DNA of 63,378 nt, the filler included, from Reclinomonas americana ATCC 50394 (taxonomy: Eukaryota): assembly GCA_048213135.1 (NCBI GenBank). It is 14 parts of 14 records of this genome, joined end to end, with 100 filler letters (N's around TTAATTAATTAA, not from the genome) between each part and the next. Parts side by side here need not be neighbours in the genome. Positions count along the whole stretch, not along the records: positions 53,486 to 61,979 come from AFZH01017029.1; 13 more parts are not named here. The stretch is one strand, 5' to 3'. The first letter of the stretch is position 1, and each line of letters opens with the position of its first letter. The notes beneath the pieces are model-generated. The model ran no database searches. It was not told the origin of the DNA and saw only the letters and a program-made list of their open reading frames with translations. A program made the translations under genes and the position numbers. This document shows positions 14,519 through 62,105 of the stretch, piece after piece.

Positions 14519-17500
14519 CCTTCCGTGCACCCTCCCTTTGCCGTTCGTGTTTCCTGTCTGTCGGGGAAACTTATGAGAGTCGCTTTGAAATACTGACCTT
14601 TGCATTTTTCCGTAAACAGACCTATGCCAGCGAGGTGTTGACCCCGGAGGCGGCGGTGCAAGTCGGCGGCTTGCTGACGTCGCAGAGTTCACCCGATTTG
14701 GAGGCGTTCCGCAAGCTGTTTGTCAACATTACGCTGACGGTGGAGCGGAAGCGGGGGTCTGGACCGACGACCTCGGCCGAGCATTTTAGCGATGTGAGTT
14801 TTGTGAGGGGAATTTGAGGGGAAAGAGATGAGGAAAGGGAAGGGGAAGGGGAAGGGCGGATAGGGTTGGAGGTGCATGGATCACGGCAGCCGAGACTTAA
14901 GGAGAGTGTGTGCAAGGAATGAGGCACGTGGTTTGTAATTGCCGAGTGGCCGGTGTGCAACTAATGAGGAAATTCGGTGGAGGAACTGCACGGTAGCTGA
15001 TACCGACGACAGTGCGCGAGCGAGGCACGGGGCGCGTGGCTCACGAGTGAGACGTGAGGACAGTATGCAACGAATGAGAAATCAGGGTGGAGATCTTCAC
15101 GACAGCTGAGACTCGAGGGTAGTGTGCAAGAGGTGGGAAAGAAGGGTGTATCAGTATTCACGGCAACTGAGGAGAGCGTTCGTGACAAGGGGACATAGTA
15201 TGGAGCGAGATACTCGTTGCAGAATGCGTGGGGAACGGAGATCATTTGGGAGAGAGGGCAAGAGAGACCTGCGAAGATCGGTGGCGCACATGAGTGAGCT
15301 GTGGAGAAAGAGCACTTAGACAGTTGAATTTTAGGGGACTGGAGAATGGCTGCATGTGGATAGAAGCATTGAAGACGAGAAGTGTGGCACGCGGTGGGAG
15401 AGAAGCAGTCACCTCTCCTCTCTCTCCTTTTCTTTCTCTCCTCCCCCCCTCTCTCTCTCTGACCATTCGCCTTCCCACACAGGTCAACTACCTCACCAAG
15501 CGACAGGAGAGTCTGGCCAACGCCCACGTCACCCGCGCACTCGCCGCCAAGACGCAACCTGCCGCCGCCACGGCGCCACCGGAGATTGACATGTCGAAGC
15601 GTTGCGTGATACACCATGTTTTTGCCTCCCATGATGCCGCGAGACTTAACGCTTCCACAGCCGTACCACCGCCGACCACCCACTTGAAGACATTCCAGGA
15701 CTGGAAGTCATCGCCACCCGACCGCGCGAAGCGAGTGTACTCGACCAAGGCGCCGTATGCACTGGCCGTGGTCAAGGACAGCTCCACGACAGAGACGAAT
15801 GCCTCGTTTGTCAACTACACACGGTCGCAGCGCGCCGACGTCACGTCGGAGCAGTCAAATCGACACTTCACCACGGCCGCTCTCGGTCGCTGCATTGGTG
15901 CGTCGGCAGTTGTGTGCACGGAGGTGGATGTCTATGCTCATCTATTCTCTCTCACGCAGGCCAGCGACCGGAGACACCCGACGATGTGCGCGATCTGCGC
16001 GAGACACTGCCGCAGCGTGGCACGTTTGTGGATCAAGTCTCGCGGTTGAATGCCGAGTCCGACGCCACACGCACGCAACACGGCGCGCTTCCGAGTGATG
16101 CAGCGTCGACTGCCTCGCGGTCCGCTGTCGCTCGTGAGCCGGGATACTATGAGACGCTGCGCGCGAAGTTCGACAAGGAGGTGGAGGTGGAGGTGAGTGA
16201 TTGGGAAAGGGGGTTGGAAAGGGAAAGGGGGTTGGGGGGAAAGGGGGAGGACAAAGAGGGAAAGGGGGAAAGGGGCAACGGGAGGGAAAGAGGGGATGGG
16301 GAGAGGAAGAAGGGAAAGAGTGAGGAGAGGAAGAGGAAGGAGTGTAATAGAGAAGGACAGGGGAAGAGCAGAAGTGACAAGAGAGGAATCAGCATGGAGA
16401 CAAGGAGAAGGAAGAGCGAAGACGAAAGATGGCAAGAAAAGCGAAGATAAGAAGGGAATTTCGGAAGAAGAACAGGAAAGGTTGTATTTGGACGGCTAAC
16501 GGATGTGGGAAAAGAAGAGTAGGGGACAAAGGAAACAGACAGCAGAGAAGGAAGAGGGAAGATGGCTGAAGGAGGAGCGGAGAGACCAGAATGGAGGCAA
16601 TGGGATGGGAGAGAAAGAAGGCGAAGACAACTGGTTTACAGGGAGAAGGGAAACAGATAAAAGCACGGAGACACCGAACAGAGAGTGGAGAACAGCGAAT
16701 GGAAATCAGAGAGTGCGTTGGGAGAGGAGAACCGAGATCAGAAGGGGGATGGAGATCGGAGAGCAGAGAAGAAGGAGGAGAAAGAGAGCGGCGAAGCCTG
16801 GAGAGTGATTTGAAATCAGCGAAAGAAGAACGGAGAAGCTAGTTGAGTGAATGTAATGGAAAAGCAGTGATCGGCAAGACTCAGCAAAGAAGAGAAATGA
16901 AGAGTGACAGCCGAAGGGAGAAGGGAGAAGAGAAACCTGGAGTGTTATTGGAGATCGGCGAAAGAAGAAGAGAGAAGCTAGTTGAGAGAACGCAAGGGAA
17001 GAGCAGTAATCGGAAAGGAGTCAGCGGAGAAGAGAGACAAAAAAGCCGAAGGGAGAAGAGAGAAGAGAAGCCTGGAGTATGACACGAAATCAGCAAAGAG
17101 CGAAAGAAGACCACAGAAGCCTGTTGAATGAAACGCAGTGATCGCAAAGGAGGAAAGTGCAGAGAAGAGAGACGGAAGAGTGACAGCCGAAGGGAGGAGA
17201 GAGAAGAGAAATATGGAGAGCAGGTGAGAATGACAGCTGATGGGAGAAAGACGGAAGAGAAACCTGGAAGGCGGCAAGAGAAAGCAGAAGAGAGGTAGAC
17301 AAATCATCATAGAGAGTCGGAGAATGCAAGTGAGCGTTCAAGAGAGGCTGTGATAGGCAGTCGTCATGCTCTCCCTTCGCAGCCTTTCCTCATGTCTTTC
17401 CCTCTCTCAGAAACACGCCGGCGGCGAGGGCCGATCAGCCACATTCTACGGACGCACGTACAAGAGGCACGACCCGGCGCTGGTGGCCAAGCTGCGCCCG

Positions 17501-17629
17501 AAGCCATTCAAGCCCAACAAGACCAAGGCTCCGTACGACACGCACACCGTGATGCGCCAGTATGTGTCCGAGCAGGCGGATAACTTTACGACGGAGCACT
17601 CGGTGGCGTCGGCGCACATGCTGCGATGA
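13403..17629 (+). CDS. Hypothetical protein (5'-partial, at least 5 exons)
   Basis: GT-AG bounded coding-like exons at 13403-13562, 14620-14793, 15483-15897, 15960-16192 and 17411-17629 (…KHAGGEGRSATFYGRTYKRHDPALVAKLRPKPFKP…NFTTEHSVASAHMLR*). No family recognised. Confidence 0.6.
13720..14110 (+). repeat. Imperfect intronic tandem duplication (~210-240 bp period)
   Basis: TGTGCGCGTCTGGAAG.GAAGCGCGAGTCAG and GCATGTGTGTCAATGGGCGT.TCTTGGAGATAAAGACAGCGTGAGAAATCGTGCGAGG each occur twice. Confidence 0.8.
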
Positions 17630-17852
17630 GAGGGCTGGGCGCGGGAAGTACGTCGTTCCCGTCGACAAAAAGGAGATATTTGTAATGTGGAAATGATAAA
17701 AAACAGAAGAGCGAACAATGTGGAGCAGATTTCCAATGTCAGCGCACACTGTTTCACTCCGTGCATCAACACGACACACAAGAACGAAAAAAGCAACAGT
17801 GCGTCTAGACCCTCCTCTGCTGCTGCTGCTGCTGCTTTGGCGGCGGCGGCAA

Positions 17853-20800
17853 TTACAGCTCAAACTTGGTGGAGGCCTTCTCCTTAAGGAAGGCGAGGAA
17901 GCCGTCGACCTCACGGCCGCCCTCGTACACAATCGGCTTGTCCTTGGCATTGCCGGGGAAGAAGTAGATAGTGGGGAAGCCACGCACGGCGATGCCGGTC
18001 TGCGGCGGCGCGTCATTCAGCGTCGAGTCGACCTTGGCGATGACAACAGAGTCCACGCCCTTCAGCTTCTCGGCCAGCTCGGCGTACTTGGGCTCCAGGG
18101 TCTTGCAGTGGCCGCACCCTATGGAGAGGAAAAGGGCGAAGTGAGAAGGGGTAAGAGGAGAAGGGGGAGAAAAGGGAAAGGGAGAAGAGAGAGGGGGGGA
18201 GTGAAGAGGAGAAGGGGAGAGCGGAGGAAAAGAGGAGACCAGACAACACTGTGCCTGTTCACAGTCAATCTTTCCTCTTGATGGGCATAGAGAAGGAGGG
18301 AGGCACAGCCAGGGAGAGGACACCGCATGAGAGAATGAAAGTCAGATATGAGAGAGACTACTGCTCTCATTGCCTTTTGATGCGATGAAACGGAGGACGA
18401 CAAAAGAAGGCAAGGCAGACTGCGAGTAAGACACAGATATAACCAGCAAATAAAATGATCGAGAAAGAAACATGTAACGAAGGACGAGAGAATAAGAAAG
18501 AAAGACATACAAAGAGACAGGGCGAAACTAATTCTCTCCTTCTCCTTGATGCGACTGACGGGCAAGAAAAAGTCATGACAAGACGGAGAATATCACAGGA
18601 GCGAGAACGAAAGGCGACACAAGGAGAGGAAGAAGAAGACAGAGACAGGAAGATAGACTGATAGATAAAGAGGGGTAGAAGACAGAAAGGCAGATAGTGT
18701 AGGCAAAGAGAGAGTGAGAGAGTAAGTCAACAAAGAGCTGACAAGAAACAGAAGGCCTGCCTGACAGAGCAAGGACAGCCCCTTCCATTGATCTGCGACG
18801 CAACAGGGAGCGTAGAACTCGACCAGCACATCCTTGTCGTTGTTGAGCACGATCTCGTCGAAAGTGCTGCCGACGACCACCTTGACCGGCTCGTCGTTGC
18901 TCTCCGGCACCGGGGCCGAGCGCACGTGCGAGGTCAGGCGGCCATTGGACCAGTCGTCGAGGAACTTGTCGAGGTTGGCGGCGTTGACGTCGTCGTTCAA
19001 CGGGTACTTCCACGACCGCTCCTGGTCGTCGACGGCAAAGGCCGGCAAGCGCTTCTCGTCCAGGCCCAGGCGGGAGCGGTGCGAGGCGAACTTGTCGCTG
19101 AGCGTAGGAAGGAGAAGTGAGCACACTGAAAAGAGGTCTCTCTACTGCTGATCACTCAACTTGTTCAGGTACACAAAGGTCAGCTTGCCCTCGTACTTCT
19201 TGGCGGTGGGGATCAGGGGGTCGATCACCAGACCCGGCGTGCGCAGCATGTCGGACGACACAAAGAGCACGGCCAGCGGGCGCTTGGTGGCGAGGTAGCT
19301 TTGGGCGTTCTCCATCGTCAGCTCACCCTGCACAACAAAACAGATGTGAGACACAGAGGCACGCCAAGGGAGAGTATGTGTGTGACAAACGCACCCAGAA
19401 CGGAATCGAGGCGTCGCTGAGGAAGGAGATAATGGCGGCGGATTCGACAAACGAGCCCGTGTACTCGGCGGGCTTCTTGCGATCAAAGTGGCGGTGGACG
19501 CGGATCATCGGGAACTTGCTGACGGCCAGCTGCTCCGCAAGGGCGGGATCGGTCACCATGCCGAAGCGCATCTTCTCGCGCTGGTCGTTGGCCACGTTGC
19601 GGAACATGGTGCCGTCGAGGGACTCGGCCTCCACGAAGCCAATGGCGGCCAGTGAGTTCTTGTCCTGGAACTGCGCGACCTCCGTGCCGGAGTTGAGGAT
19701 GACGAAGGCGGGGCCGGTTTGGCTGCAAGGGGGAAAGGGGAAGGGGGAAGGGAGGTTAGAAAAGGAAAAATAAGAAATGACGGCCGCGAAGCGGCTGTCA
19801 CAAGAAGGAGAAGGAACGGAAGTGCAGAGTCAAGAGACGAGGCAACAGAGATTAAAAATGACGGCCGCGAAGCGGCTGTCACACCAGGAGAACCGACGTT
19901 GCGTGCGACGAGTTGGAAGCAGAGAGTGGAGAATGTGAGGGCAGCAAGAACTCAGAATGACGGCCGCGAACGTTCGCGGCTGTCAATTCAGGAGAACGCC
20001 ACAATGCGTGCAGAATGATTCACGCAGGCAGTGGAGGGCACGAGCCATGGAAGAACTCAGATTGACGGCCGCGAAGCGGCTGTCTGGAAAAGAAAAAGCG
20101 AAAAACGCGTGTAGTGCTTCAAGTAGATGAAAGCGAAAGCGCTGAACCGTGCGTGCTTGGAGATAGTGTGACGAAGTGCTGCATCGAGATCTAAATGACA
20201 GCCGCGAAGCGGCTGTCACATCAGGAGAAGAAGTGATTTGTGCAAGTGTTTAAGTCACCAAAGGAGAGCAAAGCACTGAACACGATCCGATGAGCACAGT
20301 ACAAGAATCAAATCGGACATGACAGCGGCAGTCAAGAAACGAGAGCTGGTTGGGAGATGAGGGCACATAACAGGCGAGAGAGAGAGACTGAGAGAAACAG
20401 ACAACGAGAGAAAAAGAAAGACAAGTAACAGAGAACAGAAAAAACTCGGAAACAGATGGAATACCAGTACCAGTCACGCGATAAGCGATGCCCAACTCGA
20501 GAAAAAAAGAGAGAAAGTAAGAAAGGGAGCGACAGAGAGGAGAGAATATCTGTGAAGTAAAGTGGAGGCGACCAGCAACAATCAGGACATAAGGAGTAAA
20601 TATGAGGCAAGAGAGAATAGAAAGAGACAGTGAAAGAGGAAGAGAAAGAGAAAAGAGCGAGAAAACGCAAGCAAGCAAGCGAGCAAACAAAGAAACAAGT
20701 GAGAAAGAAAGAAGGCACTACGAATGAAGAGCGCACCACCCATTTACGTGCAACATACCCCACCTTCCTCTCTCTCCCCTCCCTTCCCTTTCCCCAAACC

Positions 20801-22327: not shown

Positions 22328-25300
22328 ATGTCCGCTCGTCGCGTAACGGTAGTCTTCCTGACCATCATCTCCTTGCTGCTCTGCATCCACCACGTCAACG
22401 CAGGTGTGTGCACGTCAGAGAGCCTCCCCTCATGTGTGTTCGTGTTCGAGATTTGGGTGTGGGTGTGCGTCCCTCTGCCCGCACCTTTGCTTGACCACAC
22501 TTGCTTGTGTGCATTGCGTGTTTGTGTGCGTGGGAGATGCCGACTTGTCCCATAATCAACCCGTGATTACGCGCACACCAAGTATCATGATCTATCGCCA
22601 GTTTTTGTTTTCTGACTTGGTGCATCTTTTGCCTCTGTGTGGCCAGGCTGGTCGCCGACTGCGATTGGCGTGCCTGCCAAGACCGGTGGTGTGTCTGTCT
22701 ATTTCGCCCTCACTCCCGACACGGGCTTCGATTCCAGCTTCTCCACCGCCGGCGTTTTCCGCGATCAGGGGTGCACGGTGGCTGCTCCCACTCTGGTCTC
22801 TGCCACAACGGGCGACTCGGCCTCCACTCAGGCGTCGGTTACGTTCGACGCCTCCAGCGATCTCTCTGGCGGCGAGTACTTTTTGTGCATTGACCGGGAC
22901 GGCGTCGGCAGTGCTTCCGGCTTTGAGTTTGTCGTGCAGGTCGCAGTCTGTTGCGTCTCCTCTCCCTGCATCCCTTCCCCACACTGTTGTTAGTCTCTCT
23001 CGCTCTCTCTCCCTGCATCTCTCTCTCTCTCTNNNNNNNNNNNNNNNNNNNNNNNNNNNNNNNNNNNNNNNNNNNNTTAATTAATTAANNNNNNNNNNNN
23101 NNNNNNNNNNNNNNNNNNNNNNNNNNNNNNNNCTCCCTCTCCCTCCCTCTCTCTGTGTGCCCATCCTTCTCCTCTTGTCCCAGCGACTGATAGTACCTCG
23201 CAGACGCCGTCAAGCCTCAGCCCGACATTCACGTGGTCACCGGCCTCGCCTCCGCCACCGTCACCGTCCACGGCGACCACTTCCCGTCGGTCGGCACTGG
23301 CAACCTGGGAGCCTCGTTCCTCCTCACGAGCGATGCTGCGTGCACCACCGGCACAGTCAACACCCATGTCGTTTTGTCGCCGCTCGGCCAGAGCCCGAAG
23401 AGTCTGCGCTTCAACATCTCCACGGGCACCAACTTCAAGCAAGGCGCACTGGGCGCCGAGGCCCTCGGCACCTGCGACCTCGCCGCTCCCGGTGTCTACT
23501 ATCTGTGTGGCAGGTGTGTTTGCGCGCGTGCACTGCACACCGAGATTGTTTTGCACTGACTCCCTGTTCCTCCACCCCCCTCGCCTCGCAGTTTCCAACT
23601 GACCGGCGGCGTCGTGTGGCCCGTGCTCGGCGGACGCATCATTGTGGTGCAGTCGTCGACGCCGACAGTGTCCTTTGTCAACCCGCCGGTGCTCCAATTC
23701 GGCAAGGCGAACAACGTCTACGTCGGCTCGCCGACCACCAGCTTCACCAGCTGCACCTCGTTCAAGCTGGTGGCCTCGGGCCAGGACTGCAGCTCTATCG
23801 CCGTCTACGACACGGTGGAGGGCAGTGTCGGCGCCACCGCCACTGCGCTCGGTCCCAGTGGCTGCACGTCGCCGACCGGCTGCAGTCGCTACCGCCTGTC
23901 GGTGACTCCCAATGCAATCACCGGCGGCGTGGCCCTGAAGCTGTGTGTGGCCATCAACAACGGTCCGTATGCCGACAGCAGCGAGGCGTTGACATCGGGA
24001 TTCGACGTGCAAGTCGGAGAGCCGCTGTCGAAGATGACGCCGACGAGTGTGACGATCAAGGCGGCCACCACGGTCACCGAGAATGTCGTGCAGTTCACGT
24101 TTGATCACGACTTCTATCGTCGGCCGCGAGTGCTGCTCGGTTTGACGCAGTACAACAACAACAATGCGGGTGGGAGTGCCGGTGATACGAATGTGCATTG
24201 CGGGGAGCCTGTGGTGACGCCGCATGGGGTGAAGACGGTGTGCACGGCGATTACTGCGAGTGGGGTGCCGGTGCCGACGTATCAATTGAGTTGCGCGGAA
24301 GGGGGAAGGAAAGGGGAAGGGGGTAGAAGGGGAAGGGGGTAGAGGGGAAGGGGGTAGAAAGGGGGAAGGGAAAAGGGAAAAGGGAAAAGGGGAAGCAGGG
24401 AAGGGAAAAGGGGAAGGAAGGGGAAGGGGGAGAGGAGAGAGGAGAGAAAGAACATATATGTGTGCAGAACAAGATGAGTGGAAAGACAGGAAATGGTGGC
24501 GTGATTGGTAAGAGTGAGTGAGTGGCTGTGTGGTTGAGGAAAGGTGCAGTGAGGAAGGAAAGTGGCGGCTTGAGTGGTAAGAGTGAGTGGAGGAGACAAA
24601 GAATTTGTGAGGGAGTGAGTGAACCAATGAGTGCTTTGTGTGGGAGAGACGGGAATGAGGGAGGTTGTGTGCATGGATGGCGGCGACAAAGTGACTGAGA
24701 ATAGAGGCAGTGAATAGTGAAGGGGGTAGAAAAAGGCGTGAACTGAATGAGCGAGCGAGTGAGTGAGTAACTTTGTGGACGAGGAAAGAGGCAGTGAGGA
24801 AGGGAAGTGGAATTGACGGTACTCGTGGCTTGAATGATAAGAGTGAGTGAGGAGAGACAAAGAGTTGTGAGGGAGTGAGTGAATGAATGAGTGCTTGAGG
24901 AGAGAGGCAGTGAGCAAGAGAGTGAGATGGAAGAGACAGGTGAACGGAAAGAGTGAGTGAGTGAATGAGTGTTTGAGGAGAAATACAGGTAGTGACGGGT
25001 GTTTGTGTGGATTAAGGAGACAGGTGAACGGTAAGAGTGAGTGAAAGAATACGGGAGGAGACAGGCAGTTAAACAGAGTGTCTGTGTCGGTGAGGGAACA
25101 GAAATAAGAGGGCGTGAACGGAAAGAGTGAGCGAGTGCTTGAGGAGAGAGGCAGTGATCGAGGGAGTGTCTGTGTGGGTGAGAAGGATACAACAGAGGGC
25201 GTGAGTGGGTGTGGCGGAGACACCGAGACTGCGGGTAGATGATCGTAGGGGTGCTTGAGAAGAAGGGCAGTGACTGAGGGAGTGGGAAAGACAGAAGTGA

Positions 25301-28300
25301 GCGAGTGGAGGAGACAAAAAGTTGTGAGGGAGTTAGTGAATGAATGAGTGCTTGCAGTGAACAAGGGAGTGAGGAGTGTCTGTGTGGATGAAGGAGACAG
25401 GTGAACGGAAAGAGTGAGTGGGTGAATGAAAGCTGGAAGAGAGAGGTAGTGAATGAGGGAGTGACAGGTGTCTTTGTGGATGAAGGAGACAGGAAAAGAG
25501 TGTGAATGGAAAGAGCGAGTGAACGAATACTGGAGAGACAGAGAAACGGAGTGTCTGTGTGGGTGAGGGGGTCAAGAAAAGAGGTCGTGGACGGAAAGAG
25601 TGAGTGAGTGAATGCTAGAAGAGAGAGGCAGTGAAACAGAGTGTCTGTGTTTGTGAGAGGAAGAGATAAAGAGGGAAAGAGTGAGCGAGTGAATGAATGT
25701 GTGCTTCAGGAGAAATGGAGAGTGATGGCTGACAATCTTCTCCCTTCCCCCTCCCTCTCCCTCTCTCTCTCCCTCCCGCCACATCACAGCATATCTGGCC
25801 TACTACGTCCACCACTCGTACGCCTTCACCATGGACACGCAGTTGACTCTCACCGACAAGTCGTGGTTGCTGAGTTCTTCATCCGATCGGACTGCCAAGT
25901 CGGTGCGTTGCCTCGTCGCACTGCTCTCTGCTTTATATGATATCGAAGACTCACTCTTTCGAGCGCAGTCGCACAGCGTCTCCAGCGTGTACCCGTTCGC
26001 CACGGTGCCGACGTTTGCCACTGCACTACTCGGTGCGCACACGCTGCGCCAGTCGCCGCACGACGCTGCGCCCACCGTGCACGGCGACAGCTTTGCGTTG
26101 TCGATTGGTTCGACTGCGCGCTACAATGCCAATGTGCAAGGCACCGTCACCGGCACGTCTCTCGTTGAGAATGTCGCGGCGCGCGTCGCTATTGGGCCGG
26201 CGCGAGAGGATGCCACGAACATTAGCGGATTTGTGCTGTTGTCGGGTGGTGAGTGGATCCTTTCATACGAACACACGGTTCTTTCCCTTCCTGTTACTTG
26301 CCCCGTATTCATTCCGGCTGTTTGAATCCCACCGCGTCGTTCCTCCTTCATGTCCCTTCCATTCACCTCCTTCGCCCTTCTTCATGCTCGTTGTACCACA
26401 TGACCCTTGTCTTTTATCCCTCTTCTCATTCATCCCATTCTTGTTTCCTTTCTTCTCCCTTCTCCATCTCCCTTCTCCTCTACCTCCTCTCATCTACCTC
26501 CTTCCTTCTCCTTCTCCCTTCCTCCTTCTCCCTTATCCTTCTTTCTTCTCCTTCTCCCTTCTCATTATTTCTTCACCTTCTCCTCTACCTCCTCTCATCT
26601 CCATCTCGCTTCTCCTTCCCCGCCTCTCCACTGTCGCGCTTTTCCATCCCCCTCATCGTTCGCCCTTCTCCTTCTCCCTTCTCCTTATCCCTTCTCCGTT
26701 TGTCGCGTTTTCCTTCCTTCTCATTCTCCTTCTCCTTCATCCTTCATCTTTCTCTTCTTTCTTCTCCTTCCCCACTCCTCCATTTGTCGCGTCGTTCCTT
26801 TCCCTCGTCCTTCGCCCTTCTGCTTCTCCACTGTCCTTTCTTCCTCTTCTCCATTCTCCCTGCTCCTTCTCCCTTCTCCGTCTCCGTTCTGTAGTGACGC
26901 GCTTTTCCTTTCCGTCGTCCTTCACCTTTCTGCTTCTCTCCTTTGCCTTCTTCCATCTGCTCATTTATCCCCTTTTCCTTCTCCCTTCTCCCTTCTCCTT
27001 CTCCCTTCTCCCTTCTCCATCTCCCTTCTCCTTCTCCCTTCGGCTTCTTCATTGTCCTTCCTTCCTCTGCTACAAACAAAACACCTCATTCACCACATTC
27101 CAACAACGCGACAAACGCCCACGAATCCCTTGCCTACACATAAAAACACCCATTCTCTTCCCGTCACCTTCCCTCTTCTCCTTCTCTTTCTGTTCTTCCC
27201 TCTTCTCCTTTCCCTTCTCCGTTCTTCTCCCCTTTCCATTTCTCATCCCGCCAATTCATTCCGCGCCTTCCCTTCCGTGATCCTGTTCCCGTTCCTCCCT
27301 CTGTCCCATCTCCCTTTTACCATTTCCTCGTCCCTCATCTCCTTCTCCCCTTCTCCCATGAGCCCTTCCTTTATCCTCCTTTCCCTCACTCTCTCTCTTC
27401 TCCCTTCTCCCTTCCCAGCAACGACGCACAGCAGCAACTCGCTGACGGCCACCGTGGACCTCAAATCCATTGACGCACCGCACGGCCTGCTGGCCACCAC
27501 GGCCACCGTGCAACTCTTCCTGCGAGGCTGGAAGTCGCTGGCGGCGCAGTCGATTCAGCACCAGGTGCTCAACAACTCCATCCAGCTGATCACCGTTCGG
27601 GTCGGCGACGACACGTACGTCACCGGCTTTTCGTTCCAGGTGGCGGATCCGGGTGCCGGCAACGAGACGTACGTGACGTGGACGGCCATTGGTCGTGTGC
27701 GTCCGGGTGCGACGCCCAAGTGCCAGGCGGGNNNNNNNNNNNNNNNNNNNNNNNNNNNNNNNNNNNNNNNNNNNNTTAATTAATTAANNNNNNNNNNNNN
27801 NNNNNNNNNNNNNNNNNNNNNNNNNNNNNNNAGCAACGACGCACAGCAGCAACTCGCTGACGGCCACCGTGGACCTCAAATCCATTGACGCACCGCACGG
27901 CCTGCTGGCCACCACGGCCACCGTGCAACTCTTCCTGCGAGGCTGGAAGTCGCTGGCGGCGCAGTCGATTCAGCACCAGGTGCTCAACAACTCCATCCAG
28001 CTGATCACCGTTCGGGTCGGCGACGACACGTACGTCACCGGCTTTTCGTTCCAGGTGGCGGATCCGGGTGCCGGCAACGAGACGTACGTGACGTGGACGG
28101 CCATTGGTCGTGTGCGTCCGGGTGCGACGCCCAAGTGCCAGGCGGGCTTCTTCGGATCGGACTGCTCTCGGTGCTCGCTGAGTGTCGGCGACTCGGTGTG
28201 CGGCGAGGACCAGATGAGCGTGCTGACGTGCAGCAAGGACGGCGAGCGTGTGAAGACGGCGTGTGGCGCCGACAAGCCGGTGTGCGTCGGTCTGCCTGCG

Positions 28301-28844
28301 CTGAAGACGTCGTGCGAGGCGTCGTGCCTGGAGACGTTGACGACTCCCGCCACCACCGCATTCGGCATTGTGCAGATCTTGGTCAGCGGCGACGGGCAGA
28401 CCATGCTGTACGTCGACGAGGCGAATGTGTTTGTGTCGACTGACACGGGTGCCAGCTGGACCGCTCCCACCGTGGCCGGCGCCGGTGGCGTCATCTGGGG
28501 CTCGCCAGCTCTGAGTCGCGACGGCTCGACCATGTGCGTCTCGTCGGGCCACACCGACACCCTCGGCGTGTACGTGTCGCGAGACGGCGGAAGCACGTGG
28601 AGTGCGTCGCTGCCGGGTCAAGCGGCAGTGGGCACCGTCGGCATCAGCGACAACGGATCGGTGATTGCGGTGACGTTTGATACCGCGCAAGTGACGGTCT
28701 CCACCGACGGCGGAGCCACGTGGTCGTCGCCGACCGTGCCGAATTTCAAATTCAGTCGGGGTGCCTTTGTCACTGGCGACGGCTCGAAGGTCATCTCCCT
28801 GACCAACTTTGGCAGCCCTCAGGTCTCGACCGACCAGGGCGCCA
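22328..28844 (+). CDS. Large secreted modular protein: signal peptide, beta-rich domains, H-type-lectin-like segments, EGF-like motif, BNR/Asp-box repeats (3'-partial)
   Basis: Signal MSARRVTVVFLTIISLLLCIHHVNA. VVQFTFDHDFYRRPRVLLGL and GFSFQV...YVTWTAIG resemble H-type lectin strands. CQAGFFGSDCSRC is EGF-like. Asp boxes STDTGASW, SRDGGSTW, STDGGATW and STDQGA. Runs into the gap at 28845. Confidence 0.7.
24450..25730 (+). repeat. Degenerate purine-rich intronic satellite (GAGACAGGTGAACGGAAAGAGTGAGTGAGTGAATGAGTGCTTGAGGAGAGAGGCAGTGA-like units)
   Basis: The motifs GAGACAGGTGAACGG and GAGAGAGGCAGTGA recur several times. Confidence 0.7.
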
Positions 28845-29419
28845 NNNNNNNNNNNNNNNNNNNNNNNNNNNNNNNNNNNNNNNNNNNNTTAATTAATTAA
28901 NNNNNNNNNNNNNNNNNNNNNNNNNNNNNNNNNNNNNNNNNNNNAAACGAGGCATACCGCTACCAACAACTGACCGTCCGAGGCGACAACAACAGAGCAC
29001 ACAGTGGTGGACGTCGGGGCAAAACCCTTCCAACCTCACCTTCCAGCCATCGACGAGCGATGCGCTCCACAACAGGACCGAGGAGGATATAAAACAACTG
29101 GTAAAAAGTACTTTCGGAAGAGACCACTCGCGCCCAAGGCTGCTGACTCGTGCGCCTCAAGCACAGATACAGACCGAATGTGTGAAAACAAGCCATGCGC
29201 TAAAGTCACCAGTATGAAAACAGACTCCAACCAAAGTACACGACGATCCAAAACAAGTGGCGAGGCTGAGAAGAACCACCACCACCAATTGCTGACTCCC
29301 AGCGCCGACCACCAGCAGTGTCCAAGTGCGAGGGTGGGGAGAATCGGGGTTGGAGGAAGCCACCGGGAACAATCAGTAGATTCCAGGAGATAGAGCATAC
29401 TTCAGCTGTCTAACGACGT

Positions 29420-53385: not shown

Positions 53386-53981
53386 NNNNNNNNNNNNNNN
53401 NNNNNNNNNNNNNNNNNNNNNNNNNNNNNTTAATTAATTAANNNNNNNNNNNNNNNNNNNNNNNNNNNNNNNNNNNNNNNNNNNNGTGGTAGTAGTACGT
53501 TGTTTCGTTAGTAACGAACGACGTCGTAGTGTGTCGTGTCGTCGTCGTACCGTACTACTCCGTCGTCGTCGTACGAAGTAGATATCTCTCTCTCTCTCTC
53601 TCTCTCTCTCCTCCTCCTCTCTCTCTCTCTCCTCCTCTCTCTCTCTCTCTCTCTCTCTCCCGCACACACACACACCTTTCATGCAACGACGATTCAAACA
53701 CGAGTCCTTTCGCCTCTCGCGTCCCTCTCTCCCTCGCTCGCGCATTCTCTCACACCCCGCACTCTCTTTTTCTCACTCACTCATGACACGCGACACAGCA
53801 GGTGACCATCAAACACGGGCGCGCTGCAGAAAGCAAGATACGTCGGATGTCCTGCATGACATTGACGATCTCACGTACTGTACACCGCCACGAGAACAAG
53901 CCGACTGTGTGTGAGACGTGTGTGCAACAAGGTGCATCAACCTGAAGAGCGAGAAAAGAAGCCAAGAACTGCGACGAGAAG

Positions 53982-56900
53982 ATGTCGGTGAGTTGTATTG
54001 ATTGAGTGGGGGACGCTTGTTGTTCGCTTGCTTCTCCTTGTCTTCTCTCTTTCTCATCGCTTGGCACTCACTTTCCTGTGTATGTCGCAGTTCTCTGTGC
54101 ATGTGAGCGCGGCGCATGATTCATCGCTGTCGGTGGTGGAGGGCATGTCGGCCATGTCCACTCTCGCAGACTTGCTGCGCGAGGCCACACGCGTGCTGCG
54201 TGAGAAGTGTGGAGATGAGGGGGTGGAGATTGTGGGGGTGGAGAAGCCGAGTGCATTCGACTTGGAGGATGCGAGTGTGTTGAAGCTCAAGTCACTCGGC
54301 ATCAACTCAACTAGTCATCTTGTTGTCCGTGTGACGCTTGGCGCGGCGGTGCAGTCGAATGGAGGGAGTGGGAGTGAGAGTGGAAGGTATGTGAGTGATT
54401 CCTCTCTTTTCTCTTTTGCACACATGCAACTCACTCATGTCTTCGCACAGCAACTCGGATCGAGTGACGCGGTTTGTTTTGCTTGTCTTCGTCATCCTTC
54501 TTCTCTCCCTTTCTTTGTTCTTCCACTCGGAGTGAGTATGTGCTGACTATGTCTGTGTGTGCGCGCACAGCATGATCAACTCACAGCGCATCAACATGGC
54601 CTTTGAGGCGGTAGAGGAGGCCGTGCGTCTGCGCTGTCAAGTTGCACTGGCCAAGTTCAGTCGTGATCATCCCGACTTTGATGTGCGGGCATGGGTGCCA
54701 AGTTTCACACCTGTTGGCATGGATGCGGTGGCCGTGAAGGCATGGCGTGAGCGACATGCTCCACTCCATCCCGCACGAGTCAAGTTGTTTGCGGAGAAGC
54801 AGCCGGTGTTGTTGGCCTGGCGTGCTGCATTCGACGCGGACTCCTCATCCGACCCTCCGTGTAACGGATTCGACACGACGGCACTCACCACTATCATGCT
54901 GTATGGTGGCTTTGTTCTGGATGACGGTCGCCAGGTGCTATTGATTGACGATGTCGAAGAACGGAAGGCGGTGGAGGAGCTTCATTCTGTCAGAAACAAG
55001 CTGAGACACGATGAGTTGCCATTGACAGACACCACTGTGCAGCATTACCTTGGTGACGGTGGTGTCTTTTTCTCCATCCTCTCTCGACTGCAGTTCACCG
55101 ATGATGAGCGTGCTCGATTCTCTTCTCGTATCTGCGAGGCGCGTCATGCTCGACACATTGTTGACACATTCGAGGAGCGACTGCATCGGTTGGCTGTGCG
55201 TGAGCTCTCCTTCTACCAGCACGACGAGAGTGTGCACAAGGACATGCAGATGTATGTGCCACTGTTGTGCTCACGTGATCGTGACGTCTCTTCGAGTGAC
55301 AAGATGACCGATCTGTTGACGGAGGTGGATGCCTTCCTCTCTGACGCCAACACCACGCAACGTGTGTTGGTTCTTTTTGGTAATAGTGGCACCGGCAAGA
55401 CCACCACCATGTCGGTGCTGGCTGAGAGAGCATGGCGACAGTGGCAGATGAGGGAGAGCAGGCGAGTGCCTGTGCGTGTGCCTCTCGGTGCACTGCGCAA
55501 TGCCAATGAGCGATTGTTGGAGGAGGCACTGGAGCGATTGTCACCAGAGGTGGGATTGGAGTCGGATGTGCGACGACTGAAGGAGGAGCCACTGCTGTTG
55601 TTGCTTGACGGATACGATGAGTTGTACCGTGGTGTGAATCTGTTTGTCAAGAACCAGCTGGATGTGTGTCGCGATGTGAAGGCGATCATCGCCTGTCGTG
55701 GGGATTACGCACTGACGGCACTGGGTGGAGTGACGCAGTATCGACGGTACTTTGCACCAGTGGATGCACGAGGACAGTTGTGCATGCTGCAGCTGATGGA
55801 GCGACACGTCGCGCCATTCAACAAGGAACAGATTGTGGAGTACTTTGTGAGATTGGTGCAAGTTGGTGATGATGATGATGACGGTGAAGTGCGATGGTCG
55901 ACTGCCGAGGAGTACATTGATGCACTGAGGAGTGTGCTTGGACTGGATGCACTTGTGTCGAATCCATTCCTGTTGGCAGTGGTGGCTCGTGTGTTGCCGC
56001 AGTTGGTGGCAAGTGGTGTGCAGCGACCGACTCGGTGTGATGTGTTTGACCGATTCATTCGACAGTGGATTGCGAGGGAGCTAGGGAGACAAACTCGTGT
56101 TGGTGCGAAGTGTGTGCCGATGGAGGAGACGTGTCTGGCATTCTGTGAGGGACTGGCACGGTTGATGCATGAGAGGAATGTGGTGCGGGCCATGTCAGAG
56201 GAGCGGGCATTCGAAGAAGATATTGCTGAGTTTGGCGGCGCGCCATTTTCCTTGCGACGAGTGGAAGAGGGACCGTTTGACAAGTTCCTCGGTCACAGGA
56301 ACCAGTATGTGCGAGTGTGCTGTCCGATTGTGCGACGGTTTGGAACGACGCAGTGGGGTTTCGTGCATCTGTCGTTGCTTGAGCACTGTGTGGCACGGCA
56401 TGTGTTTGCGTGGGAGACGTGGGATGAGGAGAGGAGATTGACGGTGCAAGATGTGCAACAGCATGTGTTGGGAGTGCGACTGCTGAACGACAGACCATCG
56501 TTGGTGAAACAGATGGCCGAAGTGGTGCGACGGTCTCCTCGACTGCAAGCGAGACTGTGGGAGGTAATTTATATGTCACGTGAGGTGGATGAGGAGCGAT
56601 TGGTGACGGCTGCCGCGAATGCAGCAACGGTGTTATGTGTGGCGCAAGTGTCGTTCAGTGGGCGAGATCTCTCGGGTGTGCGAGTGAGGGGTGCGGATTT
56701 GAGGGACGCGGTGATGCACAGGACGGCGTGGAGGGGGGCGGATTTGCGAGGGGTGAATGTATGCATGGCGTATGCGAGGGAGGCGGATTTCAGAGGAGCG
56801 GATGTGACGGGCGTGAAGTGGCCGATGAAGCCGATAGTGAGCCACACTGATAGAGTATTTGCAGTGGTAGTGACACCCGATGGGCAGCATGTTGTGAGTG

Positions 56901-59662
56901 GCAGTGCTGACAAGACTGTACGGGTGTGGTCGGTGGCAAGTGGCGAGGAGGTGCGCCGACTGGAAGGCCACACGAATCGGGTGAATGCAGTGGCAGTGAC
57001 TCCCGATGGTCAGCACATTGTGAGTGGCAGTACAGACAAGACTGTACGGGTGTGGTCGTTGACAAGTGGTGAGGAGGTGCGCCGACTGGAAGGCCACGTA
57101 TGTTCTGTGTCTTTAATGGTAATAACACCGGATGGCCAGTACATTGTGAGTGGCAGTAATGACAATCTAGTGCGGGTGTGGTCGATGGCAAGTGGCGAGG
57201 AGGTGCGCCGACTGGAAGGGCACGCGAGTGAGGCGAATGTAGTGGCAGTGACACCCGATGGACATCACATTGTGAGCGGTAGTCGGGACAAGACTGTTCG
57301 GGTGTGGTCGCTGGCAAGTGGCGAGGAGGTGCGTCGACTAGAAGGCCACACGAATTGGGTGTATGCTGTTGCTGTCACTCCAGATGGTCAGCACATTGTG
57401 AGTGGCAGTTGGGACAGGACTATACGGGTGTGGTCACTTGTAAGTGGCGAGGAGGTGCGCCGACTGGAAGGCCATACTAGCGAGGTGTCCGCAGTGGCTG
57501 TGACACCCGATGGGCAGCACATTGTGAGTGGCAGCGATGATAGGACTGTACGAGTGTGGTCGGTGGCAAGTGGCGAGGAGGTTCGCCGACTGGAAGGACA
57601 CACAAGTGGGGTGTCCGCAGTGGCAGTGACACCCGATAGTCAGAACATTGTTAGTGGCAGTGCGGACAAGACTGTACGTGTGTGGTCGTTGGCTAGTGGC
57701 GAGGAGGTGCGCCGACCGGAAGGCCACACGAATTGGGTACATGCAGTGGCCGTGACACCCGATGGGCAGCACATTGTGAGTGGCAGCTGGGACAAGACTG
57801 TACGGGTGTGGTCGGTGGCGAGTGGTGAGGAGGTGCGCCGACTGGAAGGCCACACAAATGGGGTGTCTGCAGTGGCAGTGACTTCGGATGGCCAGCACAT
57901 TGTGAGTGGCAGTGCGGACAAGACTGTACGTGTGTGGTCGGTGGCAAGTGGCGAGGAGGTGCGCCGACTGGAAGGCCACAAGAATCGAGTGTTTGCATTG
58001 GCAGTCACACCTGATGGTCAGTACATTGTGAGTGGCAGTGCGGACCGAACTGTACGGATGTGGTCGGTGGCACGTGGCGAGGAGGTGCGCCGTCTCGAAG
58101 GCCACACGAGTGGCGTGTATGCAGTGGCCGTGACACCCGATGGCCAGCACATTGTGAGTGGTAGCGGGGACAAGACTGTACGGGTGTGGTCGCTGGCGAG
58201 TGGTGAGGAGGTGCGCCGACTGGAAGGCCACACGAGTTCGGTGTTCGCAGTGGCAGTGACACCCGATGGCCAGCGTATTGTGAGTGGCAGTGAGGACGAA
58301 ACTGTGCGGGTGTGGTCGCTGGCATGTGGCGATGAGATGCGTCGACTGGAGGGCCACATGCATGATGTATTTGCAGTGACAGTGACACACGATGGACGCT
58401 ACATTGTAAGTGGCAGTCGGGACAGGGGAGTGCGGATGTGGCCACTGGAAAGCGGCGAGGAGGTGCGCAAACTTGAAGGTCATGGGAGCCTGGTGAATTC
58501 AGTGACACTGACACCCGATGGATTGCACATTGTGAGTGGCAGTGATGACAAGACTGTACGGGTGTGGTCGGTGGCGAGTGGTGAGGAAGTGCGCCTACTG
58601 GAAGGCCACACGAGAGCTGTGTATGCAGTGGCAGTGACACCCGATGGACAGCACATTGTAAGTGGCAGTAACGACAACACTCTGCGAGTGTGGTCGGTGG
58701 CAAGTGTTGAGGAGGTGCTCCGACTGGAAGGTCACACGAGAGCGGTGCGATCAGCAGTCGTGACTCCTGATGGCCAACACATTGTGAGTGGCAGTGCAGA
58801 CAGGACTGTACGGGTGTGGTCGGTGGCAAGTGGCGAGGAGGTGCGCCGACTGGCAGGCCACACGAGGGAGGTGTGGGCAGTGGTTGTGACACCCGATGGC
58901 CAGCACATTGTGAGTGGCAGTCGGGACAAGACTGTACGGGTGTGGTCGGTGGCAAGTGGCGAGGAGGTGCGCCGACTAAAAGGCCATACGGATTGGGTGC
59001 GTGCAGTGGCCGTGACACCCGATGGCCAGCACATCGTGAGTGGCAGTTGGGACAAGACTGTACGGGTGTGGTCGATGGCTAGTGGCGAGGAGGTGCGTCG
59101 ACTGGAAGGCCACACGGGTTTGGTGCTTGCAGTGGTAGTGATCATGACACCCGATGGGCAGCACATTGTTAGTGGCAGTGCGGACGAGACTGTACGCGTG
59201 TGGTCGGTGGCAAGTGGCGAGGAGGTGCGCCGACTGGAAGGCCACAAGAATCGAGTGTTTGCAGTGGCAGTCACACCTGATGGCCAACACATTGTGAGTG
59301 GCAGTGCAGACAAGACTATACGGATGTGGTCGGTGGTAAGTGGCGAGAGAGTGCGTAAACTGGAAGGCAATACGAGTGCGGTGTGTGCAGTGGCAATGAC
59401 ACCTGATGGCCAACACGTTGTGAGTGGCAGTCAGGACAAAACTGTACGAGTGTGGTTGGTGACAAGTGGCGAGGAGGTGCGTCGACTGGAAGGCCACACG
59501 GGTTTGGTGCTTGCAGTGGCAGTGACGCCCGATGGGCAGCGCATTGTCCCGCGTGGGAAAGATGCACCAGTTCTGCGCCGATGTGAAGGGGTACTCGAGC
59601 GCATTCTCGGCTCCTTCAAGCCTGTTCTCCCATATGACGAGCACGACTGCGGGCTTACGTGA
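53982..59662 (+). CDS. NLR-like STAND protein: ubiquitin-like - HEPN-like - NACHT - pentapeptide repeats - 21 WD40 repeats (predicted 1804 aa)
   Basis: Phase-consistent exons 53982-53987, 54091-54386, 54451-54471 and 54571-59662. Walker A GNSGTGKT (55379), Walker B LLLLLDGYDE (55592), NPFLL, WGFVHLSLLEH, AAANAATVL, pentapeptides (~56650-56815), and 42-aa WD40 repeats. RNKLRH at 54992-55009. Confidence 0.9.
56840..59550 (+). repeat. 126-bp coding tandem repeat: 21 full + 1 partial highly similar WD40 units
   Basis: Consensus EGHTxxVxAVAVTPDGQHIVSGSxDxTVRVWSVASGEEVRRL, conserved at DNA level. Confidence 0.97.
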
Positions 59663-61478
59663 ACTCCCCATATAGACGTGAACTCCCCATATAGACCCCC
59701 CTTGAATTGCAATTGCGGATAGTGCAGACACGCAGGTCATCCTCGCACTCTGCATGCACGGAGTGTGCAATGGTGTTAATGACGAGGTTATCTACATCTA
59801 CATATTACCAATTTCTGTCCACAAAGAATCCATGTCAAAGCCTTGTGCAGGTTGTTCGCCATCGCTTCTGGCTCCAGCCGAAGCGATGAATGATTTGTAG
59901 ATCCTTCTCCCGCCCTTATACCGCAAAGATGGATGTGGTGTTGTGTGTAGTCTTCTTCAGATTCGACTGCGAGACGACTCTCTCATCCTGTGGAGGCATT
60001 CGATAAGAGGGCATTCTTCGTGTTGCTAAGTTGCATGCACTGCAAAGCTTGATGGTTAGAGATGTGTCTCCGATACAAAAGACGCTACGTAATCCTGACG
60101 AGTACTAGTGTGCGTGATCTCAGTGCAGTGGCTGAATGGAAATGTTAGAGGCGTTAGTCCCTCCCCCTCTGGACGTGCTTTTTGGCCTAGCAATGCACAA
60201 AATAAATAAAACTATCTCTGCTGAAGAAAACAGATTCCTCACCGAGTTTCTCCCCGTCGAAAAGATGGCAGCACTCGGAAACGCAATGGGCGATACCTAG
60301 AAATAGAAAGAGCACTGCAGATAATTTGAAGGCATCACAGGAAATTACAGAAGTGACTGATGAAAAATACGAGGCACGCACCTTCTCAGAACTAGGGCAC
60401 CGCCTCCGTCATTGCGATTCACACGGCCAGTGATAGTCTTGCGTACTATCACCCGTAACAATTACCCACTGCACTCCACAGTGGCACTGGACCACCACCA
60501 CCACCACTGCCGCTGTAACGCACAGAGTCAGTGAGCTGGTGGAGAGTGACACCATCAGCCAGCCACCACCACAGCGCACCACAGTGACAGTGGTACCACC
60601 ACCACCACCATCACATGGACTACTGCTTCTATCAATCCACCTCTGCCTTCCTCACTGCAAATATGTGCCAAAGAAAGGTGGGTGCATGTGTGTGAATGAT
60701 CAGCGAAAGGCGCGTCCCATGAACGTCATGTATCAAGCTGTGAGTTACATGAAGCATAAACAGCTGAGCGGCAGGAGGCCAGCGAAAAACGGCAACGTAA
60801 AAAGGAGAGATATGCTGCACAGAAAGAACAGGAAAGGGAAGAACACGAAAACAACCAGCTAACAGTGTGGAATCCATAGAAACAAAAAGACGTCGTGCAT
60901 CCAATCCCATGTGCAAGCAGAGACTGCTGCGAATGCCAACAGAGGAGAGCAAAATCTGCCAGGCTTTGAGAGAGGTAGGTTGCTGTCACAGTCTCTTCCC
61001 CAACATCATCGCGAACGGCAGCAGCGTCGACCAGCTCCAACACCGCAACTGTTGGCCCATCAGCTTGCCGGCGAGGAGTTGTGGAGCCGAGGCCCGCCAA
61101 CGATGAAGGACGCGAAGGTCGGCTGGAGAAGGTGGATGTGTTGCCAGTCGTGGGAACACTCACACTCGCCTGTTTGGTTGAGAAGGCAGCAATGTCAACT
61201 AAGCGAGAAGGCAATCGACATGGAGAAAATGTGATAACGAACCTTTGTGTGGCAACAAAACTCTTGCTCTTCTTGTCACCGTCTTGCGCCTGACTGTCCC
61301 GTTGCACTGCGTCTGATCGTCCGCCATTCTTGCGCACGCGCCTCTTTGAACAGCTGTCTCTCTCCTTCCATTTCTTACCCCACACATTGACAGTCGCCAA
61401 TGTCCAGACGCGTACGTATCCCAGAAGGAATGAGAGATATCCTCCATACTCCCTGCTTTCCTCTTTTCCACACGACGC

Positions 61479-61511
<33 letters not shown>

Positions 61512-61851
61512 AATTACCATACACCGCGCTCATCTCCCAAGCACGCCGTTCAACAGAGAAAACACACCATGAAATGTGATCAAGGGCAGTGGGAAAGAGA
61601 GATTGTGGTGGTGGAAGAGAGACAGAGGGGATAAGGAACATTGAATGTGGATGGATGGATACAGGAGAGAAACACGGAGATGACGAAATGAGACGAACAG
61701 AGAGCAGCAGGAACGAGAGAAATGAAAGCCTGAGAGCACGAGAGTGACGGTGATACGACGAAAAGAGACAACCACACACGGATGGAGGATGCAGAGATAC
61801 ATGGCAGACCACGATAAAATGTGGAGGAAGAAGGAGTGTGGAGAGCGAGAG

Positions 61852-61979
61852 AGGAGAGGGTGGAGAAGGAGAAGCACGTGTGCATGTTCAGGCAGTATCA
61901 CAAACGAGGTGAAAAGAGATGGAGAGCGGAGTGTGAGAGAGGGGAACCCTACAAGAACAAGCCTGACAGTGAGCTGCTC
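61852..61979 (+). repeat. Dispersed repeat, copy 2 (direct repeat of 52341-52460)
   Basis: See copy 1. Truncated by the gap at 61980. Confidence 0.85.
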
Positions 61980-62105
61980 NNNNNNNNNNNNNNNNNNNNN
62001 NNNNNNNNNNNNNNNNNNNNNNNTTAATTAATTAANNNNNNNNNNNNNNNNNNNNNNNNNNNNNNNNNNNNNNNNNNNNCTGCCTCACTCTCTCTCCATT
62101 CACAG

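Follow-up and report, generated by a model that had tools for sequence, protein, structure and literature searches.

The window analysed here, a stretch of 63,378 nt from Reclinomonas americana ATCC 50394 (NCBI GenBank assembly GCA_048213135.1), carries on its plus strand, at 53982–59662, one three-exon gene for a receptor of the NOD-like receptor (NLR) type. Its predicted product comprises, in order, a small ubiquitin-like (Ubl-like) domain, a helical domain, a NACHT NTPase, pentapeptide repeats and 21 WD40 repeats. This is the tripartite layout of NLRs: an N-terminal effector slot, a central nucleotide-binding and oligomerisation domain (NOD) and C-terminal repeats that form a superstructure. 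The helical domain in the effector slot carries HEPN-type motifs and a HEPN profile signal that stays below threshold, and we propose, at a probability of roughly 0.6, that it is a HEPN RNase effector which would be activated by oligomerisation.

Gene model and the NACHT-pentapeptide-WD40 core

The long open frame spans 54557–59662, and the gene can be extended upstream of it to a start at 53982, where the original prediction had placed it. Exon 1 (53982–53987) consists of the proposed start codon and one further codon, ATG TCG, with a GTGAGT donor directly next to it. Intron 1 (53988–54090, 103 nt, GTGAGT...CGCAG, GC 0.485) has canonical GT-AG ends and leads into exon 2 (54091–54386, 296 nt), an open frame for a small N-terminal domain of ~98 residues. 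Intron 2 (54387–54570, 184 nt, GTATGT...CACAG, GC 0.478) cannot be read through, because an in-frame stop lies at 54544–54546, and its splicing restores the frame by joining AG to C in a Ser codon. Exon 3 (54571–59662) contains the remaining coding sequence up to TGA as a single uninterrupted frame, with 1697 codons counted from the Met at 54572, which is residue 1 in the numbering used below. Codon usage resembling that of exon 3 is found in exon 2 only for the proposed frame (+0.25 log2 per codon, versus −0.20 and −0.40 for the others), and GC is 0.48 in the introns versus 0.56–0.59 in the exons. The ATG, the two GT-AG introns, the continuous frame and the codon usage of exon 2 all fit the predicted model, which, with its spliceosomal-type introns, looks like that of a eukaryotic gene.

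The domain encoded by exon 2 was originally called a Ubl. It has no Pfam or NCBIfam match; a search of the ESM Atlas with language-model features returned ubiquitin and Rad60-SLD clusters at 0.86–0.89 (ranks 5, 11, 19 and 30, behind unnamed clusters), and these leads make a candidate ubiquitin-like fold plausible.

The NACHT-pentapeptide-WD40 part of the architecture was predicted correctly, all three modules being above their Pfam cut-offs. The NACHT NTPase module, together with its C-terminal helical region, occupies 55361–56653 (E 9.2e-9, 35.8 bits versus a cut-off of 26.7). Its Walker A, GNSGTGKT (55379–55402, residues 270–277), and Walker B, LLLLLDGYDE (55592–55621), are both intact and agree with the patterns GxxxxGK[ST] and hhhhDGxDE, which, along with the Pfam score, characterise a NACHT of the signal transduction ATPases with numerous domains (STAND). 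The pentapeptide-repeat linker follows at 56654–56821 (Pfam Pentapeptide, E 4.4e-7, 29.8 bits versus a cut-off of 20.2); the scores of NCBIfam pentapeptide families on this linker lie under their cut-offs.

The WD40 array (56860–59547) is composed of 21 full repeats of 42 residues and a partial 22nd, with Pfam WD40 matching 22 stretches and Tandem Repeats Finder reporting a period of 126 bp, 21.3 copies and 80% matches. Three seven-bladed propellers could be built from 21 repeats. Differences among the repeats are concentrated at positions 12–14, 16, 32 and 34 of the unit. At these codons the proportions of nonsynonymous and synonymous differences (pN and pS) are 0.49 and 0.53, versus 0.088 and 0.32 at the other 36. 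With pN far under pS at the 36 framework codons, the WD40 framework is under purifying selection in this comparison of repeats, and the few variable positions are free to change or diversifying. Past the array, a perfect 19-bp direct repeat in 2.1 copies (59657–59696) overlaps the TGA stop (59660–59662) and continues beyond it.

For the NACHT region, 13 relatives were found at 24–31% identity, in EukProt records, Mortierellomycota fungi, Hexamita and metagenome records. The Pfam families listed for these 13 include Pentapeptide in at least 10 and WD40 families in all, and their NACHT-pentapeptide-WD40 layout is paired with N-termini other than that of the query. The precomputed Pfam sets of these relatives hold TIR_2 and SAM in P0004 and P0011 and PF03498 in P0008, and in two of these three the NACHT lies beyond residue 1150. 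As far as family content can tell, the heads joined to this common NACHT-pentapeptide-WD40 core would differ greatly, and TIR_2 and SAM heads are what a swappable effector slot would predict.

A single public DNA run shared words with the gene, with coverage of 55613–55930 only and no joints. One contig of this run, 137 nt long, covers 55613–55749, just after Walker B, with 13 differing positions and a depth of 334; an identical contig of 230 nt from the same run has a depth of 2. These contigs hint that the sample contains related NACHT genes in many copies, as a family.

The helical N-terminal domain and its HEPN signal

Residues 1–215 (54572–55216) form the helical domain which, on sub-threshold profile matches, we regard as a probable divergent Swt1-like HEPN. 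Translation and motif mapping confirmed that FDTTALTTIM and RNKLRH lie, as had been reported, in a helical segment upstream of the NACHT Walker A. The former (54869–54898, residues 100–109) is a candidate helix-2 acidic motif, in which D101 and L105 are the residues placed by hhalign. The latter (54992–55009, residues 141–146) is an Rx4H string with Asn directly after Arg (R141, N142, H146) and thus agrees with the HEPN motif as defined in PMC3710099, namely Rx4-6H in which a polar residue (N, D or H) follows the Arg. The two had been described as ~35 aa apart, which is close to the 31 residues from M109 to R141 (41 from F100). A second R-x4-H string, RHAPLH (54752–54769, residues 61–66), occurs shortly behind W58 in the first half of this domain; it contains a proline, no conserved family column is aligned to it, and it is probably due to chance.

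How much the motif can carry was assessed with composition-preserving shuffles of a 240-aa segment, for patterns that were picked after inspection of the data: RNxxxH alone arose in 3603 of 200000 shuffles (1.8%), and a D...L followed 30–45 residues on by RN...H in 398 of 200000. The RNxxxH motif alone is not rare, and the weight of the sequence argument is carried by the profile signal in its flanks.

This signal was obtained by several routes. With E values of up to 10 allowed, the sole Pfam family to match a 203-aa piece was HEPN_Swt1 (PF18731; E 0.11, 13.2 bits), with residues 129–157 on profile positions 74–101 of 115; HEPN_DZIP3 (PF18738) did not match the domain within this limit. In the ESM Atlas feature search, the HEPN_Swt1 cluster came first (0.80) and the HEPN_DZIP3 cluster second (0.78), and all 10 of the 10 best family-bearing matches share the family or clan of the top one. 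Bacterial HEPN_Swt1 domains were then gathered from three phyla, with matches in 33 of 301, 17 of 251 and 11 of 301 genomes, and 59 of them were used for a hidden Markov model (HMM), one locus (L088) having been dropped for extraction in the wrong frame. The query scored 9.4 bits against this HMM, a value that none of 5000 free shuffles reached (maximum 8.3); when RNKLRH was held in place and the rest shuffled, 3 of 5000 reached it, with a median of −1.2 bits. By hhalign, residues 1–214 are colinear with the whole bacterial domain (P 0.0026–0.0044), at a score reached by none of 202 free shuffles and by 2 of the 165 that kept the motif. Since motif-kept shuffles rarely reach the score of the query, its flanks appear to resemble the Swt1-like family beyond the motif. 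In the hhalign placement, D101 and L105 fall under the D..aLL of bacterial Swt1-like HEPNs and E136-L137 under the family EL; the D and L are kept in 36 and 37, respectively, of 42 aligned bacterial domains, a placement that is not independently significant. Identity of the query to these bacterial domains is 12–24%.

The predicted secondary structure agrees with a HEPN domain. Both AlphaFold runs, alignment-free (local pLDDT, i.e. predicted local distance difference test, 57–72) and alignment-based, give an identical layout: a helix at 102–111, a beta-hairpin at 113–123, a helix from 128 to 145/146 that ends at the Rx4H, a loop, and a helix at 153–171. HEPN domains have been described as having the Rx4H placed between helix-3 and helix-4 and an insert at helix-2 (PMC3710099), and the predicted layout, with Rx4H at a helix end and an insert after the D101 helix, corresponds to it. 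A fold search with the alignment-based model returned the C-terminal domain of yeast Swt1 (4pqz) at rank 3 of 48161, with Z 6.8, a root-mean-square deviation of 3.8 and 129 residues aligned over a chain length of 136, while AbiF (8vz6) and Csm6 (4rgp) were both found at Z 5.7; in such searches a Z below 8, or below ~13 for helical bundles, could mean a common arrangement only.

Three further comparisons were set aside. Identity at 9 of 23 conserved columns was discarded as evidence, as 9 or more were reached by 159 of 488 shuffles. The MAFFT alignment put R141 and H146 under both invariant columns, and 140 of 488 shuffles matched both as well. Finally, a 97.6% hhalign match to alignment A1, which includes the query and excludes 17 of the 59 bacterial domains to thin close copies, is void, because A1 contains the query itself.

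Several results weigh against a HEPN RNase in this position, and the first of these concern the profile evidence itself. The 13.2 bits of HEPN_Swt1 compare with a gathering cut-off of 27.5, which leaves the domain outside PF18731; the ESM score of 0.80 is under 0.9, below which scores are leads only; and the hhalign probability is 8–12%. As the tested family had been chosen from the Pfam match, the shuffle P-values are not library-wide. The lines of HEPN evidence may all depend on one short motif and the residues around it, among which, moreover, the Ala of the family WAH (position 145) is Arg here, the family DD after the motif is TT, and the Arg that follows is His (R158H). As for structure, AlphaFold on the single sequence produced no usable model (pLDDT 43.5), and the model with pLDDT 75.2 was built on a HEPN alignment, so it is circular and speaks for compatibility only. 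Foldseek, which the original prediction had named as a check of the HEPN fold, did not bear that fold out: the alignment-based model had 0 matches in the PDB at E≤0.001. The matches to 4pqz, AbiF and Csm6 are within helical-bundle noise because their Z is under ~13, and when VIA was applied to the Foldseek top 1000, the best HEPN entries (AbiF Z 5.7, Csm6 4.1, TM0613 3.9) did not stand out.

Searches for relatives of the domain point in the same direction. Exhaustive phmmer found 0 homologues among 1,835,955,588 protein representatives, and 5 genomes in which HEPN_Swt1 occurs gave nothing at E≤10 when searched directly at the protein level. Word-indexed searches yielded 1988 candidates among proteins of 935–2977 aa, 0 of them at E≤0.001, and 385 among proteins of 111–356 aa, 0 of them at E≤10. 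Pattern scans of genome, metagenome and viral contigs produced 99, 197 and 3 matches, respectively, none of which was confirmed as a homologue. In PDB sequence searches, the domain itself had an unrelated match at E 1.8 only, and the best HEPN match with the A1 profile was Csm6' at E 0.21. PADLOC and NCBIfam had no match to the domain, and no paralogue of it was found within the window. Neither do the 13 NACHT relatives have RNxxxH (0 of 13) in the stretch scanned, which was upstream of Walker A where the pattern found one (9 of 13) and otherwise the first 600 residues; in one of them, P0014, this stretch contains RHSNPGH. The best score of these relatives against the bacterial HEPN HMM was 4.4 bits.

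It may therefore be asked whether the head is HEPN at all. An unrelated, lineage-specific helical head, for example an adaptor or a membrane-targeting effector, would make RNKLRH a chance string and the output something other than RNA cleavage. The frequency of RNxxxH in segment shuffles (1.8%), the sub-threshold score of every HEPN family, the lack of homologues together with a fold search within helical noise, and the ease with which shuffles match the invariant R and H in MAFFT (140 of 488) all suit such a head. Yet once the motif is fixed only 3 of 5000 (HMM) and 2 of 165 (hhalign) shuffles reach the query, Pfam HMMs and language-model features pick the same clade among thousands of families, and the motif sits at a helix end with an acidic residue ~40 residues upstream, before the insert, as in the HEPN layout. 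On balance, we consider an unrelated head unlikely, albeit the strongest competitor of a HEPN RNase effector. The HEPN identity claimed in the original prediction thus keeps the convergent HEPN_Swt1 signal from Pfam, ESM, HMM and hhalign, all of it sub-threshold, and the domain is best described as probably a divergent member of the HEPN superfamily, Swt1-like by its best resemblance, and filed in neither PF18731 nor PF18738.

Proposed mechanism and comparison with known systems

As a HEPN RNase effector under the control of oligomerisation, the protein would be a single-chain NLR/STAND receptor. Three WD40 propellers, with 21 blades and a few hypervariable surface positions, would be the likely ligand sensor, and the pentapeptide beta-helix a spacer. 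The NACHT NTPase, in which Walker A and B are intact, would be the likely oligomerisation switch, its autoinhibition being lifted by ligand binding. Oligomerisation dependent on nucleoside triphosphate could bring the HEPN heads together in such a way that composite R/H sites form, and the paired heads, in which R-N-x3-H is kept, are predicted to cleave RNA independently of metal. The cell might stop growing or die as a result, or the RNA of an invader might be destroyed, and the HEPN fold, the RNase activity and the activation by dimer formation would then serve an immune or allorecognition role.

A HEPN nuclease needs a dimer, and AbiF appears as one in PDB entry 8vz6. RNase L and Ire1, which have HEPN domains of the KEN type, are activated by ligand-driven dimerisation or oligomerisation, with 2-5A switching on RNase L. 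In principle, the proposed receptor is like them, as a sensor module would drive self-association and thereby switch on an RNxxxH nuclease. Unlike them, it has no KEN family match in Pfam, and its switch would be a NACHT NTPase, where theirs is a kinase or pseudokinase. The contribution of R, N and H has been addressed by mutagenesis in KEN and PrrC, as summarised in PMC3710099.

The domain might also have a HEPN fold and act as an RNA-binding sensor or a homotypic adaptor instead of a nuclease. The HEPN of eukaryotic Swt1 has been inferred to be inactive and RNA-sensing (PMC3710099), HEPN-NLRs have been suggested as possible RNA sensors (PMC8662601), and family-conserved residues near the motif are changed in the query (A145R, DD to TT, R158H). 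Against this, the query has the R, a polar Asn next to it and the H, at the commonest spacing of four residues, HEPN domains that keep the motif have been argued to be RNases (PMC3710099), and a sensor role is already taken by the 21 WD40 repeats; we regard a non-catalytic HEPN as quite improbable. That the locus is no working gene, whether because an NLR copy is decaying or because the assembly made a chimera, is hardly credible: a search of sequencing runs gave no RNA run with this gene, the WD40 array ends in a truncated repeat and passes into a tail without repeats, and the scaffold is stitched from contigs, but exon 3 is open over 1697 codons with splice phases that fit, the whole gene is inside one contig, and the 36 WD40 framework codons are under purifying selection.

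Receptors that combine HEPN with NACHT have been described before. The pearl oyster has more than 50 genes with an N-terminal HEPN on NACHT, and some of its NACHT proteins have WD40 or TPR tails (PMC9646362); anthozoans have 17–83 HEPN-NACHT genes per genome (PMC8260672), and HEPN-NLRs were reported in nine invertebrate taxa (PMC8662601). HEPN-NACHT fusions of the CXorf38 type (cephalochordates, cnidarians) and the DZIP3 type, as well as bacterial HEPN-STAND proteins, are covered in PMC3710099, and HEPN is found among the effectors of bacterial NACHT proteins (bioRxiv 10.1101/2022.07.19.500537). Table 1 of PMC3710099 further gives a DZIP3 expansion in Capsaspora, where the architecture is not stated. 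We found no HEPN-NACHT protein of a protist or unicellular eukaryote in the literature, of which the paper supplements could hold cases. With HEPN-NACHT documented in bivalves, cnidarians, cephalochordates and bacteria, the novelty in the original prediction is overstated. The receptor type is already known, and the query is an unusually divergent, sequence-orphan member of it.

The gene shares with the invertebrate HEPN-NLRs an N-terminal HEPN with Rx4H, Asn following Arg, directly before the NACHT, and then repeats that include WD40, and the predicted role is likewise that of an RNA-targeting immune effector (PMC9646362, PMC8260672, PMC8662601, PMC3710099). It differs from them in several respects. 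The invertebrate heads are DZIP3/hRUL138-like in bivalves and cnidarians and of the CXorf38 type in cephalochordates and cnidarians; the head of the query is missed by PF18738, leans towards Swt1 and has no detectable relatives. In addition, there is a Ubl-like domain ahead of it, the NACHT is followed by a pentapeptide segment and 21 near-identical WD40 repeats, and the nearest relatives of this NACHT are not animals. The RNase output of HEPN-headed NLRs is itself still only a prediction (PMC8662601, PMC9646362).

A second resemblance is to the bacterial HEPN-NTPases of the Swt1/Abi2 clade, in which large NTPases recurrently have a Swt1-like HEPN at the N-terminus (PMC3710099, bioRxiv 10.1101/2022.07.19.500537). 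The bacterial Swt1-like HEPN was N-terminal to an NTPase in 4 of the 4 loci scanned, which was a DUF499 AAA+ in L081 and L126 and an SNF2 in L112 and L133. These HEPN_Swt1-headed ATPases are ~1100–1200 aa long, and their architecture matches the Ava_2192 type of PMC3710099. While these four loci carry DUF499 or SNF2, the query has a NACHT, and it also has spliceosomal-type introns.

The chassis, in turn, recalls the fungal HNWD/NWD proteins (HET-E, HET-D), as both have a NACHT followed by highly similar 42-residue WD40 repeats that vary at a few positions. In fungal HET-D/E, four surface positions of the WD40 repeats were reported to be under positive selection (PMC1805685), and the repeats of the query, to be set against those of HNWD/NWD, are ~80% identical in DNA. 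Unlike HNWD proteins, the query has no HET match at E up to 10, which sets it apart from that class, and it has a pentapeptide linker. The main text of a survey of fungal NLRs makes no mention of HEPN or RNase (PMC4986451).

Perhaps, then, a non-animal eukaryote has independently assembled a one-protein, RNA-degrading receptor for immunity or allorecognition, by placing a Ubl and a catalytically intact, orphan Swt1-like HEPN on a NACHT-pentapeptide-WD40 chassis with WD40 repeats that diversify as in HET-E/D. We hold this broader scenario tentatively, and with less confidence than the HEPN RNase effector as such. Bacterial proteins with an N-terminal HEPN on an NTPase give the head its best profile signal, so it may descend from bacteria. 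If the host is unicellular, the receptor type would extend beyond animals and bacteria and, if true, this would be a further case of effector swapping on a common NACHT-pentapeptide-WD40 chassis. The query would also show that a HEPN head can diverge so far that Pfam cut-offs miss it, and surveys of NLR effectors may consequently undercount such heads. As a compact example with an intact R-N-x3-H, the gene would offer a simple test of whether STAND oligomerisation switches on a HEPN nuclease.

The surrounding window

The scaffold is stitched from contigs, and the whole NLR gene is within a single one of them (53486–61979). There are 13 gaps (e.g. 2573–2672, 53386–53485 and 61980–62079), each of the form N44-TTAATTAATTAA-N44, a six-frame stop linker between contigs; open reading frames (ORFs) that reach these sites are cut by the assembly and not by biology. 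About half of the 13 linkers fall within CT/GA microsatellites.

Pfam on 11 ORFs neighbouring the NLR gene returned nothing except a weak TRP match, and neither Rfam nor tRNA scans of the window found anything. At 24001–28000 and 16001–20000, GC skew is +0.48 and then −0.43 and AT skew is up to 0.43, which suggests long purine- or pyrimidine-rich low-complexity tracts; the long ORFs in these skewed regions have no Pfam family. Apart from the NLR gene, just two coding pieces could be recognised in the window: a BNR/Sortilin-Vps10-like one at 27788–28900 on the plus strand and an EF-hand pair at 9969–11501 on the minus strand.

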